The notes: generated by a model not told the origin, from the letters alone. Shown: positions 7,156 to 61,899, numbered from the stretch's first letter. The stretch: DNA of 64,000 bases from a virus (IMGVR_UViG_3300023110_001943:32001-96000), one strand, 5' to 3'. Numbers and translations are program-made.

Positions 7156-8055
7156 ATGAACAATTTATCAACAATACAATTAGAGTTATTTCTGAAAAAG
7201 AAATATGTTCATATTTTTCCACAAACTGAAGATGTTTCTAAATCGATAGATAGGATTAAACTATACGCAAAGAATCAAAACGATTTTCTTATTTATGTTT
7301 TTAAAGAGATTATCCCTTTCCAAGAGTATTTCGAAAAGATTGAAAACCTCGTACAATCTCTACCAAACAATATATGGATAATGAGTTCAACGGCCTCACC
7401 CCATCCCTTATGTGTAAATCCTTTATTAAACACATTAATGTTCAAGGATGATAAGATATTAAATGATATTGATAAAGAAGGAAATGATTGGGTATTATAC
7501 TTTGATAAAAAACTTTTAACACCTTGTGAGAAAATATTCGATTCTATATTATCGGTGGTTAGACCAAATAAGCAAAGAGAATATTTGTTTAATAATATAA
7601 AACCAAACACACTTCATATTCAACGATACTATAATAATAATACGAGTAATATATATCCTACTTGGTCTGAATTAACACAAGAATATCTTAGAACTTATCT
7701 TGCTTGTGTAGTAGAAACGAACTACCCATCTACTACTTCATTTAATTGTATTACCGAAAAAACTTTACTTTCGTTTTTTTGTAGATGCATCCCCCTCGTT
7801 CTTGGAAAAAAACATATTGTAAGAGATTTAAAAGATATGGGATTTTGGATTTCAAATGAATCATTAGGATTTGGAGATGCCGATAACTATGAAGATGATG
7901 ATATGAAGAAAGTTGATTATTATATTAAGTGTATTGAACGAATCAATAATATTGATGTAAAAGAATTTTACTACGATAATATAGAAAATATCAATAATAA
8001 CCAAAAAATAATTTCAGAAATTTATTCAAAAAAACTTACAAAAAGACTTGTGTAA
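7156..8055 (+). CDS. Glycosyltransferase-like protein
   Basis: C-terminal VVET...ITEKT...PLVLG...LKDMGF segment, shared with 24532..25668. Confidence 0.55.
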   Translation: MNNLSTIQLELFLKKKYVHIFPQTEDVSKSIDRIKLYAKNQNDFLIYVFKEIIPFQEYFEKIENLVQSLPNNIWIMSSTASPHPLCVNPLLNTLMFKDDKILNDIDKEGNDWVLYFDKKLLTPCEKIFDSILSVVRPNKQREYLFNNIKPNTLHIQRYYNNNTSNIYPTWSELTQEYLRTYLACVVETNYPSTTSFNCITEKTLLSFFCRCIPLVLGKKHIVRDLKDMGFWISNESLGFGDADNYEDDDMKKVDYYIKCIERINNIDVKEFYYDNIENINNNQKIISEIYSKKLTKRLV

Positions 8056-8078
8056 TTCAAATATTTTTCGTATATTTA
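8043..8078 (+). promoter_or_regulatory. Bacteroidetes-type early promoter
   Basis: AAGACTTG-N20-TATATTTA. Confidence 0.8.
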
Positions 8079-8100
8079 CTATGTAAATGAGAGTTAAGAT

Positions 8101-8259
8101 ATGAAAAACTTAAAAGAATTATCAAGAGAAGAATTAGAAGAAGTATTACTTAACAAGAATTTTATTGGTGATTTTGAATCAATTAGTTCAATGATGAATC
8201 CAAAAGTTCTTTATACTGTACTTAACAAAATTCAAAAAATAAATAACATTAAACTTTAA
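8101..8259 (+). CDS. Small early protein (52 aa)
   Basis: Read manually; first ORF after the promoter. Confidence 0.6.
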   Translation: MKNLKELSREELEEVLLNKNFIGDFESISSMMNPKVLYTVLNKIQKINNIKL

Positions 8260-8262
8260 AAC

Positions 8263-8571
8263 ATGAAAACAAAATTTGAAATCTGGCTTGAAAAAGTTAA
8301 CAAAGAACGAAAGGAGTATTGGGATACGAATTTCAATTACAAGGATTATACTCCCCTTATTGTTAAGAAGGGTAAGAAGTATATGAAACTTATTGATGGA
8401 ACTTCTGTTTGGGGATTCATCTCTATGTTTGAAGGAGAATATAAAGGTATTCCAATTAAGGAAGGTGATTTAATGAAACCAGCTTCTTGGAACTCACCAG
8501 CTAAACACTCACGAGGTAATATCTTCGATGGTACTGATAAGTGGGAATACTACGGACCAAAATATTTATAA
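8263..8571 (+). CDS. Conserved phage hypothetical protein
   Basis: GDLMKPASWNSPAKHSRGNI motif, which I recognise from T4-like marine phage small proteins. Confidence 0.75.
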   Translation: MKTKFEIWLEKVNKERKEYWDTNFNYKDYTPLIVKKGKKYMKLIDGTSVWGFISMFEGEYKGIPIKEGDLMKPASWNSPAKHSRGNIFDGTDKWEYYGPKYL

Positions 8572-8590
8572 AACTTAAAAGATAAAAGAT

Positions 8591-8818
8591 ATGACAATTA
8601 AAGAGTATTACATGAACAATTACCCACAAGATGAGTTGGGTGTAGAACTAAATGAGAACGCAACTTTCGTAGGATTACTAAATTGTTTGTATGAAGGTAA
8701 TGATGTTTATGATTACATTGGTGAGGGTGATAGTTTAGTAAGAGAAAGATTATTCTCAGAATTAGCAAACCAACTAAACACGAGTTACGATTATGTTTAT
8801 AACTTGTGGTTAAATTAA
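8591..8818 (+). CDS. Hypothetical protein
   Basis: ORF track; DSLVRERLF motif. Confidence 0.65.
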   Translation: MTIKEYYMNNYPQDELGVELNENATFVGLLNCLYEGNDVYDYIGEGDSLVRERLFSELANQLNTSYDYVYNLWLN

Positions 8819-8824
8819 AATATA

Positions 8825-59953: not shown

Positions 59954-59985
59954 ATTATATTTATATTATACAAAGGAGATAAATT

Positions 59986-60168
59986 ATGGCTTCAATTGAA
60001 GAATTATACAACAAATCAGAATTTTCAAAATTAGCAGATAAGAGTAAAGATAAAACTCCTATCTCTGCTGATAATACAAACAAACTTCACAAAGATGAAA
60101 AAGCACTTGCAACAGCAAGAGGTGGAAAATTAAATCAGAAAAAATATTCTGATTCGGTATCACGATAA
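59986..60168 (+). CDS. Small late protein
   Basis: ATATTTATA plus AAAGGAG upstream. Confidence 0.7.
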   Translation: MASIEELYNKSEFSKLADKSKDKTPISADNTNKLHKDEKALATARGGKLNQKKYSDSVSR

Positions 60169-60178
60169 AATTTTTATT

Positions 60179-60751
60179 TTGAGTTTACTTAAAAATTGTG
60201 CTCAGAAATGGGCATTTATTCATATTCCTAAAACAGGTGGAACTTCCATAAGTTCTGTCCTTCACGAAATAGACGGGACAGAAAAAGTTACAATGCACGA
60301 TTCTGTTCGTGCTTTAGATGAGGTTAAGGATTACTTTATTTTTACATTTGTAAGAAATCCTTTCACACGATTACAATCAGCTTACCAACATGGTGTGAGA
60401 AAAAATGAATACACAACATCCTTTTCAGAATTTTTAAAATCAGATTTATCATCTAATATTTGGATGATGCCTCAATATTATTTTGTTACTGCTGGTTCTT
60501 CTGAAAATAAAAAAGTTTCATTTATAGGAAAATATGAAAATTTAAAAGAAGATACTTTAAAAATATTTAAAAAACTCAATATAGATAAACAGTTACCTCA
60601 TCTAAATAACAATCCTATTTACGAAAGACATCCAGGTTTAAAACAAGAAGATTATTATAAATCTTTTTATACCGAAGAGTGGATGAAGGATTGGGTAAGA
60701 GAAAGGTATGAAAATGATTTCAAAATTTTTAACTATGACATGGACATATAA
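60179..60751 (+). CDS. Sulfotransferase family 2 protein
   Basis: FIHIPKTGGTS, FVRNPFTRLQSAY, IGKYENL, YENDFKIFNY. Confidence 0.88.
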   Translation: MSLLKNCAQKWAFIHIPKTGGTSISSVLHEIDGTEKVTMHDSVRALDEVKDYFIFTFVRNPFTRLQSAYQHGVRKNEYTTSFSEFLKSDLSSNIWMMPQYYFVTAGSSENKKVSFIGKYENLKEDTLKIFKKLNIDKQLPHLNNNPIYERHPGLKQEDYYKSFYTEEWMKDWVRERYENDFKIFNYDMDI

Positions 60752-61205
60752 AGGAAAACTAATAACTGAATTATCAGATATGCCCGAAGATGTATTTGGG
60801 TTTATTTACAAAATAACAAATGGTAAAACTGATGAATACTATATTGGTAAAAAACAAGTAGTTTCGGTTCGTAAAAGAAATTTCGGTAAAAAAGAAATTG
60901 CTGCTCTTGAAGATAAGAGAATGAAAAAATACGAAATGGTTACCAAAGAATCGGATTGGAAAACATATCGTTCGTCCAATAAAGAAGTAAAGGGTTGGTT
61001 TGATGAAAACGAAAAAGCTCTTAATGAAGATAGAAGAGATGATATCAATAATCAACTTAAATTAGAAATACTTCGTTTCTGTTCAAATAAAAAATCACTC
61101 ACATACTATGAACTACAAGAACAGTTTGCACATAACGTTCTTGCAGATGAAGATTCACTAAACGATAATCTTCTTGGAAAGTTTTTCAGAAAAGACTTGG
61201 AATAG
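60735..61205 (+). CDS. GIY-YIG-like nuclease family protein
   Basis: GFIYKITN...YYIGKK...WKTYRSS...E. Confidence 0.7.
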   Translation: MTWTYKGKLITELSDMPEDVFGFIYKITNGKTDEYYIGKKQVVSVRKRNFGKKEIAALEDKRMKKYEMVTKESDWKTYRSSNKEVKGWFDENEKALNEDRRDDINNQLKLEILRFCSNKKSLTYYELQEQFAHNVLADEDSLNDNLLGKFFRKDLE

Positions 61206-61229
61206 TTAAATTTTTTTTGTATATTATTG
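61191..61229 (+). promoter_or_regulatory. Bacteroidetes-type early promoter (degenerate)
   Basis: AAAGACTTG-N20-TATATTAT. Confidence 0.5.
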
Positions 61230-61245
61230 TATAAGGTATATTGTA

Positions 61246-61899
61246 ATGAAAAGTAAAATTTGGTTTTTTGGTGATAGTGTAACTAAGGGGGTTGGTTGTT
61301 TAAAAGGAGACCCATATTATCAAGAAGATAAAAAAATATTTACACAAATAGTAGCTGATAAATTAAACATGGTGGTTAAAGATGTATCTATTGGTGGTGC
61401 ATCTACCGATTGGATACTTCATCAAATTTTAGTTTCTATTAAGTATATGAAACCGCATGATATTGTAGTTGTATCCAATACACTACCTTGGGGTACTATT
61501 ATGTTTAATAATGAAAAAGATAAATTATTATCAATTAATGATTTATGGATAGCCAATAATGATTTTTTATATAACAGTAAAGAAGAAAAAGATATCATTT
61601 TCCAATTCTCAAATTTAAAAAGAAAATACAAAAAAGCTTTTTATGAAAAATTCGAAAAAGAAATAGATGCATTAAAACCAATATTAAAAAAATTTGGAGT
61701 AGAGTTATATCAATGGGATATTAGAATTTGGTTTGATGATGAAAATTTAAAACCTTATGATACTGAATATGAAAGTATAATGAAAGTTACAAATGAAAAA
61801 ATAAAAGATGGACATTTTTCATATGGTGCTCATGAAAAAATAGCTCAACATATACTAAACAAGATTGAGATTAGTAAAAAAGATAAAACTTTTATATAA
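61246..61899 (+). CDS. SGNH/GDSL-hydrolase-like protein
   Basis: GDSVT, GGAST, DGHFS; close paralog of 19555..20175. Confidence 0.7.
   Translation: MKSKIWFFGDSVTKGVGCLKGDPYYQEDKKIFTQIVADKLNMVVKDVSIGGASTDWILHQILVSIKYMKPHDIVVVSNTLPWGTIMFNNEKDKLLSINDLWIANNDFLYNSKEEKDIIFQFSNLKRKYKKAFYEKFEKEIDALKPILKKFGVELYQWDIRIWFDDENLKPYDTEYESIMKVTNEKIKDGHFSYGAHEKIAQHILNKIEISKKDKTFI

Follow-up and report, generated by a model that had tools for sequence, protein, structure and literature searches.

Enrichment of a short hydrophobic C-terminal motif on unrelated enzymes in a group of uncultured marine myophages

Background

The stretch IMGVR_UViG_3300023110_001943:32001-96000 (bases 32001-96000 of a 141,496-bp virus record, 64,000 nucleotides (nt), hereafter called the window, to which coordinates refer unless stated otherwise) carries a series of genes for unrelated enzymes whose predicted products end in two hydrophobic residues followed by the free carboxylate. 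The GC content is 30%, CheckV puts completeness at about 76%, and every real gene of the record is on its + strand. In what follows Phi stands for I, L, V, F or M, and a protein is called tagged when it ends in Phi-Phi-COOH. Such ends mark unrelated non-virion enzymes, namely SGNH-type hydrolases, 2-oxoglutarate (2OG) oxygenases, a radical SAM enzyme, methyl-, sulfo- and carbamoyltransferases and, in a relative, a tryptophan halogenase. They are enriched and restricted to one lineage, paralogy and codon choice do not account for them and downstream context does so in part, and in one complete relative the genes that carry them cluster around a single hub gene.

An initial annotation of the window had quoted 13 C-termini of this kind, and all 13 are present at the genes concerned; the NT5C, peptide deformylase and gp6-like proteins likewise end in Phi-Phi, as it had noted. 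The tagged genes discussed here are the following (lengths in amino acids, aa).

7156-8055, + strand: 299-aa protein without Pfam or PHROG family, ending ...KLTKRLV; the last codons AAA AGA CTT GTG form the -35-like box of the downstream promoter
9386-9898, + strand: 2OG-Fe(II) oxygenase-like protein (weak Pfam match, PHROG 2OG), ending ...FFRPKQNLL
11393-12181, + strand: member of a 16-copy SGNH-like/DUF6071 family, ending ...NIPVPII at a free stop
15262-15615, + strand: 117-aa protein directly upstream of the hub gene, ending ...ENIKSFI
18935-19558, + strand: SGNH-like family member, ending ...PFKNNLL in an ATGA overlap (orthologs KTNLL, KTDLL)
19555-20175, + strand: predicted SGNH-type hydrolase with conserved GDS, G, N and D-x-H blocks, ending ...KEEKQIL in an ATGA overlap
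20172-20645, + strand: 2OG-Fe(II) oxygenase-like protein (PHROG), ending ...KRETKLL in an ATGA overlap (orthologs ETTLI, ETTLL)
20642-21667, + strand: radical SAM enzyme, ending ...TTKKVLI at a free stop (orthologs KKEII, KDSLI, QKQNLI)
23607-24095, + strand: NT5C-type 5'-nucleotidase, ending ...SILDYLL in an ATGA overlap (syntenic copies DYLL, EKLL, NKLL)
24532-25668, + strand: 378-aa member of a 6-copy family, "GT-like" in the initial annotation and without Pfam match, ending ...TQPNNLI in a TAATG overlap
32578-33201, + strand: FkbM methyltransferase with a 12-residue tail TKDKPKLIKTII (ending IKTII) after the last strand NIFFKK, in an ATGA overlap
34154-34747, + strand: sulfotransferase-like protein (weak Pfam match), ending ...IKPKRLV; the last codons form the -35-like box of a promoter
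35498-36115, + strand: peptide deformylase, ending ...GAEIL, which is kept in 57/57 orthologs and may be background rather than a tag
38299-40002, + strand: carbamoyltransferase, ending ...IIKKKVL, with a Pfam domain that stops 3 residues before the C-terminus
45118-47136, + strand: gp6-like baseplate wedge protein, ending ...KGRVV
61246-61899, + strand: SGNH-like paralog in the virion module, ending ...KKDKTFI, with a promoter -10 box 25 nt downstream of the stop

Results

Frequency and composition of the C-terminal motif

Open reading frames (ORFs) were called by a simple longest-ORF procedure, which yielded 192 ORFs covering 97% of the 141-kb genome. Genome-wide, 38 of them (19.8%) end in Phi-Phi-COOH, compared with 7.5% of internal dipeptides (binomial p=3e-8), and about 14 of these 38 ends would be expected by chance at that background. 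Within the window 18 of 96 ORFs are tagged, and among those of at least 100 aa 17 of 60 (p=1e-6 against the same internal frequency); in the larger accessory genes the proportion amounts to 25-32%. The enrichment on the ends of the phage ORFs is confirmed as a real observation.

The residues in front of the hydrophobic pair are biased as well. In tagged ends Lys is 4.1-fold up at position -4 and 3.4-fold at -5, Pro is 4.7-fold up at -5, and the share of hydrophobic residues is only 6% at -4 as against 42% at -6. Lys occupies -4 in 30% and -5 in 25% of the tagged ends, versus 14% and 8% of the Phi-Phi ends of control phages. The outline of the motif is a hydrophobic residue at -6, Lys or Pro at -5, Lys or Asn at -4, a polar residue at -3 and Phi-Phi with the free carboxylate, and in relatives it takes the sharper form Lys, Ser/Thr, Leu/Ile, Ile.

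The controls were five AT-rich phages of 30-35% GC whose genes were called identically: T4, Flavobacterium phage immuto, Pelagibacter phage HTVC008M, Staphylococcus phage K and Microcystis phage Mel-JY01. The two closest cultured relatives, immuto and Mel-JY01, provide the nearest matches of the baseplate protein (38% and 43% identity, respectively); a DNA search of a phage collection with two structural genes gave no match. Phi-Phi-COOH ends make up 8.6% in T4, 9.1% in immuto, 7.8% in HTVC008M, 10.2% in phage K and 9.4% in Mel-JY01, against 7-8% internally, which rules out AT-richness alone as the cause. Across 1,582 bacterial genomes, moreover, hydrophobic residues and hydrophobic pairs are depleted at C-termini (Weber et al. 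2020, PMC7246954). The untagged proteins of the present genome conform to this bacterial composition bias, with Lys 2.6-fold enriched at the last position, whereas the tagged ones run contrary to the depletion of hydrophobic pairs. Taken together, the control frequencies and the bacterial depletion indicate that the pattern is lineage-specific and goes against the general rule.

Contribution of gene overlaps, promoters and base composition

The initial annotation had cautioned that overlapping stops and promoter boxes can bias terminal codons, and it was right to do so: of the 13 quoted ends, four lie in ATGA overlaps, one lies in a TAATG overlap, and the two KRLV ends are written in the -35-like box GACTTGT. 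The promoter element, of which the genome has 21 copies, reads approximately aaaa(a/t)GCTTGG or GACTTGT, a spacer of 18 nt, TCGTATATTT and finally (a/g)ta.tgtaaatga. It is separated by 15-56 nt from most of the gene starts downstream of it and is probably an early or middle promoter of this phage group. Its window copies are:

8068-8077, + strand: promoter -10-like box TCGTATATTT (exact copies: 10 on the + strand of the window; close copies: 21 genome-wide), whose -35-like partner shares sequence with the KRLV codons of the 299-aa protein
34760-34769, + strand: promoter -10-like box TCGTATATTT downstream of the second KRLV end
1353, 8068, 9924, 21710, 23579, 28061, 31097, 34760, 36649 and 61925, + strand: window copies of the promoter element

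The stop of the oxygenase-like gene 9386-9898 is likewise 25 nt upstream of a promoter -10 box; here the Pfam domain ends 6 residues short of the C-terminus.

These contexts raise the question whether the ends are a functionless by-product of genome architecture, produced by tight packing, T before ATG, promoter boxes in last codons, AT-rich tails and an expanded paralog family. Several figures speak for such an origin and weigh against selection on the protein. Of the 38 tagged ends, 23 are in contexts where the DNA is constrained (ATGA overlaps 13/34, TAATG-type overlaps 4/17, promoter-adjacent stops 6/15), and three further promoter-adjacent stops are preceded by an AAAACTT element in different frames. 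After removal of ATGA and TAATG-type overlaps and of stops at most 45 nt upstream of a promoter, only 15 of the remaining 126 ends of this genome are tagged (11.9%, p=0.05). Random ORF ends in non-coding frames give 9-22% Phi-Phi depending on the frame, with off-frame stops at up to 19-22%, and intergenic DNA gives 11%. The start context acts in the same direction: T at -1 (58% of start codons) is enough to shift the last codon of an ATGA overlap towards Leu, Ile or Val. Finally, the 16-member family alone supplies 11 of the ends.

The same material also shows how far these constraints reach. Among 27 ATGA-overlap genes, the last residue is hydrophobic in 21 because T at -1 forces an NTA last codon; a hydrophobic residue at -2, found in 14 of the 27, is left unexplained by the start context because the matching start position is T in only 25%. 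ATGA-ending genes of the control phages have Phi-Phi in 11 of 105 cases, versus 13 of 32 here, so that ATGA overlap alone is ruled out as the cause although it contributes in this genome through T at -1, and immuto has the same start context and no tag enrichment. Intergenic DNA at 11% means that a neutral AT-rich tail could reach about 11% on the + strand, not the proportion found in the larger accessory genes. In the clean set, proteins of at least 100 aa are tagged in 13 of 80 cases (p=0.006), and those with a gap of more than 10 nt to the next gene in 9 of 33 (p=0.0006). The enrichment thus shrinks in this genome under the overlap and AT controls asked for at the outset, and in related phages it persists, with 16-18% of protein clusters in clean contexts tagged (cluster-weighted). 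Singleton families are tagged too, and in the complete relative G002 codon family and spacing vary from one tag to the next; both are detailed below. We estimate that 6-9 of the 38 tagged ends are due to DNA constraints (ATGA overlaps with T before the start, promoter -35 box), and we consider it unlikely that architecture accounts for the pattern as a whole.

Two other DNA-level sources were discarded. A TATAA-type motif at stops does not apply, as NTA codon use is not raised (44% of terminal hydrophobic codons versus 38% in gene bodies), and a Bacteroidota-type promoter (TTTG...TAnnTTTG) is not enriched, with 8 matches versus 4.65 expected. Besides the T at -1, the start context of the non-overlapped genes is rich in A (about -3 to -6 and -11 to -14) and has almost no Shine-Dalgarno G-run. 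Its likeness to that of immuto suggests a host with Shine-Dalgarno-independent, Bacteroidota-like initiation.

Conservation of the ends among relatives and homologs

Relatives were sampled at 83 loci, taken from related contigs in IMG/VR and surrounding their radical SAM and carbamoyltransferase genes; two complete relatives were examined as well, G001 and G002, the latter of 288 kb with terminal repeats. Protein clusters of the sampled loci without a homolog in the present genome are tagged in 20-22% of cases, versus 7.7% expected. The carbamoyltransferase keeps Phi-Phi in 71 of 80 orthologs, with CTT, ATT, TTA, TTT, GTT, CTA or CTC as last codon across the 80 loci. For the gene 19555-20175, G8-D9-S10, G54 and H181 are invariant in the alignment and N57 and D179 nearly so, which fits its assignment from sequence as an SGNH hydrolase, and Phi-Phi closes every one of its 14 full-length orthologs (51-93% identity), preceded by a 4-residue linker that varies. 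Since the residue class is kept while codons, linker and downstream context change, the motif appears to be held at the level of the protein.

Outside the lineage, the anticipated difference between homologs is borne out: in cultured phages, the counterparts of gp6, peptide deformylase, the carbamoyltransferase, MoxR and the polyprotein have other ends. The gp6-like protein ends ...GRVV here and ...GRVRSFG in Mel-JY01, the polyprotein ...GIFF here and ...SYFKFK in its Mel-JY01 homolog, and the carbamoyltransferase ...IIKKKVL here and ...KIYER in HTVC008M. Several tails are extensions relative to homologs (FkbM by 12, carbamoyltransferase by 3 and MoxR by 14 residues); extensions and truncations both occur, which rules out systematic tail truncation as the cause. 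Most FkbM homologs, including four at 86% identity, stop at the conserved strand ...NEVNIFFKK and have no tail, and orthologs at 49-64% identity keep one (...NPKLVNKII, ...NPKVIQNIM, ...KKVKNKII). These FkbM tails precede three different downstream genes, across an ATGA overlap, a 9-nt gap and a TAATG overlap, a variety of contexts that architecture would not lead one to expect.

The hydrophobic pair might instead act within the protein, packing as the end of a last helix or strand on its own surface or on a neighbouring subunit, in which case the lineage would merely trim polar tails. The periodicity of the motif, hydrophobic at -6, -2 and -1 and polar at -4 and -3, would suit such an amphipathic end, and the gp6-like protein and the polyprotein stop right after hydrophobic residues where their Mel-JY01 homologs run on for 3-4 residues. 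In the AlphaFold2 model the FkbM tail is a coil after the last strand, with a predicted local distance difference test (pLDDT) score of about 87 and one beta-bridge, and it might pack on its own domain, a point that tells against a freely exposed label. It is hard to see, however, why unrelated folds would adopt such ends in one lineage only; close FkbM homologs do without the tail, the last residues of the SGNH-type protein 19555-20175 are modelled with a pLDDT of 46, and the extensions listed above are not trimmed ends. An anchoring role is therefore, in our judgement, highly improbable as the general explanation.

Distribution over gene classes and families

Among ORFs of at least 100 aa, 25 of 78 are tagged in the accessory arm (genome 1-72.9 kb), 2 of 19 in the virion module (the gp6-like protein 45118-47136 and the SGNH-like protein 61246-61899), 4 of 20 in the right-hand glycan locus and 2 of 11 in the polyprotein and replication region. 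The initial annotation had reported the motif on 12 of about 19 modifying enzymes against about 3 of 27 core genes and had restricted it to tailoring enzymes. The direction of that contrast stands; the exact split does not, several of the "enzymes" having no detectable family. Specificity for enzymes is weak (Fisher p=0.086 for accessory arm versus virion module, 0.06 for accessory arm versus the rest), and 8 of 50 ORFs in the non-accessory regions are tagged nonetheless, which counts against a label reserved for tailoring: there is a trend and not a rule. The tag was further found on a MoxR ATPase and a cupin.

No family match was obtained in Pfam and PHROG scans for the genes starting at 7156, 11393, 18935, 19555 and 24532, and repeat scans of four of these at E<=1 gave only DUF5344 for 18935 (E=0.16). 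The Pfam GDSL matches of the paralog 61246-61899 stay under the cut-off. Clustering by iterative hidden Markov model profiles groups the SGNH-like/DUF6071 proteins into a 16-member family with 11 tagged members, and also finds a 6-member family with 3 and a 2OG pair with 2. Of the singleton families of at least 80 aa, 20 of 107 are tagged, which rules out paralogy as the sole cause of the enrichment. The SGNH-like/DUF6071 family is itself a 16-gene expansion of divergent hydrolases within one phage genome, spread over genome positions 2606-123803, with the following window copies.

3973-4911, 11393-12181, 18935-19558, 19555-20175 and 61246-61899, + strand: SGNH-like/DUF6071 family members

A Hint-domain gene and its neighbourhood

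The window also contains one conserved gene with tagged neighbours, listed here with the small ORF that follows it.

15649-17556, + strand: candidate hub of 635 aa, its N-terminal domain conserved and enzyme-like, its C-terminal one a Hint domain; untagged, ending ...VHNKPGPT
17560-17715, + strand: small ORF of 51 aa directly after the hub, ending ...AKHS; 46-53 aa in relatives, ending ...AKHL or ...AKHS

By sequence the C-terminal domain (about 497-630) is solidly assigned as Hint, bacterial intein-like: the PT-HINT match reaches 64.3 bits (cut-off 27.7), Cys497, His566, His629 and Asn630 are invariant in 44 homologs, and the best PDB matches are bacterial intein-like domains. For the N-terminal domain (1-~312) there is a lead only, towards ATP-grasp, as its language-model similarity to clusters with ATP-grasp_3, TTL and YheCD is 0.91-0.92; the invariant E22-x-N24 is compatible with that family. 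A profile of this domain finds a match in each of the two complete relatives and none in the five controls, at a threshold as loose as E<=10.

The hub sits in a block that is conserved between window positions 13438-24095 and four related loci (L139-L142, hub identity 33-38%). Its order is dCMP deaminase, an unknown of 340-530 aa, a tagged protein of 117-119 aa, the hub, the 46-53-aa ORF, an unknown of 180-260 aa and PhoH, followed by tagged enzymes including radical SAM, an FG-GAP propeller and NT5C. The syntenic 117-119-aa genes of relatives, which correspond to 15262-15615, end ...KSLI or ...QSLI. In the four distant hub neighbourhoods 29 of 100 proteins of at least 100 aa are tagged, with the consensus ...[K/N/T]-[T/S]-[L/V/I]-I. 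The clustering is most pronounced in G002, where 11 of 23 genes at most 10 kb from the hub are tagged versus 23 of 249 elsewhere (Fisher p=1.1e-5). The hub-near tagged set of that phage consists of a tryptophan halogenase (E=3e-88), NT5C, three proteins matching 2OG oxygenases (two of them above the Pfam cut-off) and unknowns. In this set Ser at -3 has the codons TCA, TCT and AGT, Thr has ACT, ACC and ACA, and the next start is offset by anything from -4 to +54; such codon switching and variable spacing point to selection on amino acids, not on DNA.

The halogenase, a flavin-dependent enzyme at L155:9112-10350 beside the G002 hub, ends ...KRQLL, and its presence there hints at a module that modifies aromatic residues in a peptide or protein.

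The clustering also bears on turnover as an alternative function. The tails could shorten the life or lower the level of accessory enzymes through host AAA+ proteases (Lon, or ClpXP in the manner of MuA-like C-motif-2), which would require no phage-encoded reader. The extreme C-terminus, basic and then non-polar, is reminiscent of ClpX signals of the MuA class. Among virion proteins, required in large amounts, the tag stays at background level, and one relative encodes a protease adaptor, ClpS (ClpS-like, L137:2289-2519). In bacteria, proteins with a hydrophobic last residue are degraded faster, and their levels fall by as much as about 4-5-fold (PMC7246954). A degron of this type does not predict the clustering around the hub in G002, however, and the closest cultured relatives, among them the Flavobacterium phage with the same start context, are not enriched. 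As for phage-encoded readers, no ClpS, no PDZ_2 domain (E<=0.1) and no gp45-type clamp was found in the 141-kb record, itself about 76% complete. We regard turnover as an unlikely explanation on these sequence-based grounds; it would be of interest all the same, because the tagged set runs contrary to the bacterial avoidance of hydrophobic C-termini.

Discussion

The comparisons across relatives and controls support the view that these ends are a lineage-specific C-terminal motif selected at the protein level and a trait of one group of uncultured marine myophages. In this respect the initial annotation is borne out in part: a shared motif is supported, its limitation to tailoring enzymes is a trend, and the roles that it put forward (docking, targeting to a compartment, virion loading or a degron) are candidates. 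What the motif does is a more tentative matter. We favour, at somewhat less than an even chance, the reading that it is a common label: the tagged enzymes would share a C-terminal address by which unrelated enzymes are brought to one partner, and the best candidate for that partner would be the conserved module around the Hint-domain hub 15649-17556.

A number of results sit uneasily with a common label read by the hub. Clustering around the hub is weak in the present genome (10/24 versus 23/104, p=0.07) and not found in G001 (5/24 versus 20/173, p=0.2), where the overall tag frequency is also mild (11.5% versus 7.1%, p=0.0095). The hub-bearing phages are all related and syntenic, so that the co-occurrence of tag and hub is confounded by descent. 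C-termini without the tag are conserved among orthologs just as well, and the hub N-domain gave no ATP-grasp match in Pfam (E<=0.1) or in a PDB search with a 44-sequence profile.

More specifically, the N-domain of the hub could read a free Lys-(Ser/Thr)-Phi-Phi-COOH tail and dock or covalently tether the enzymes onto a Hint-processed scaffold, although we think this mechanism very unlikely in its particulars. In the tethering variant, the hub would activate the alpha-carboxylate of the tail as an acyl-phosphate, leading to attachment to the Hint-processed scaffold. If the N-domain is an ATP-grasp enzyme, RimK/S6, tubulin-tyrosine ligase and LysX/LysW would offer a mechanism for reading a free tail; these known examples act on acidic tails, however, and membership of the hub in that family is suggested by language-model similarity.

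Eukaryotic organelle import, bacterial proteolysis, encapsulins and cellulosomes all make use of short C-terminal tags, for address or for turnover. In eukaryotes, the peroxisomal targeting signal 1 (PTS1) -SKL-COOH is read by Pex5, and a C-terminal tripeptide serves the cytosolic iron-sulfur assembly (CIA) targeting complex; both are address tags with known receptors. Like these, the present motif is a very short free C-terminal element on many unrelated enzymes, basic or small polar and then hydrophobic; unlike them, it is found in phages, is known from sequence and has the consensus Phi-Phi with Lys at -4 and -5. ClpX C-motif-2 (MuA ...RRKKAI-COOH) and ssrA-type degrons share the basic and then non-polar extreme C-terminus and have phage proteins among their known clients, whereas here the enrichment is lineage-specific and clustered at a phage gene module, neither of which a host degron predicts. 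Cellulosome dockerin-cohesin pairs and encapsulin cargo peptides are comparable in that unrelated enzymes dock on a scaffold or shell by a common C-terminal element, and the flexible linker in front of the encapsulin element may have a counterpart in the FkbM and SGNH-type cases. Dockerins, in contrast, are folded and about 70 aa long, while the present element has 4-6 residues and its scaffold is hypothetical; encapsulin peptides have another consensus and require an encapsulin shell.

Targeted literature searches found no prior description of a phage-wide tag of this form, or of one linked to a Hint-domain module. If one partner does read the tag, it would represent a new organising principle for phage tailoring pathways that comprise hydroxylases, a halogenase, radical SAM enzymes, methyl-, sulfo- and carbamoyltransferases and esterases, it would give a simple sequence rule to find pathway members in metagenomes, and it could serve as a minimal portable tag for protein engineering. 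Should the hub dock or tether these enzymes, the phage would encode an assembly line, organised by the tag, on which peptides or proteins are tailored, a pathway organisation undescribed for viruses.

Other observations

A RuBisCO large-subunit-like protein is encoded by a related contig (L135:5162-6346) among sugar-nucleotide enzymes; it was not found in the present record. To the left of the window, a MoxR/CbbQ-type AAA+ ATPase (L084:7593-8807, genome coordinates) ends ...SEDDIPMF, and its Mel-JY01 homolog ends ...SDDPLFNK. Bacterial single-stranded DNA-binding protein (SSB) has the acidic tip DDDIPF, and by analogy the end of the ATPase may be a mimic of the SSB interaction tail rather than a tag. 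Between the FkbM and sulfotransferase-like genes lies a shortened SAM synthetase (33198-34163, 321 aa) in which all three MetK domains are matched; it is untagged and ends ...GFSWK in 30 orthologs.

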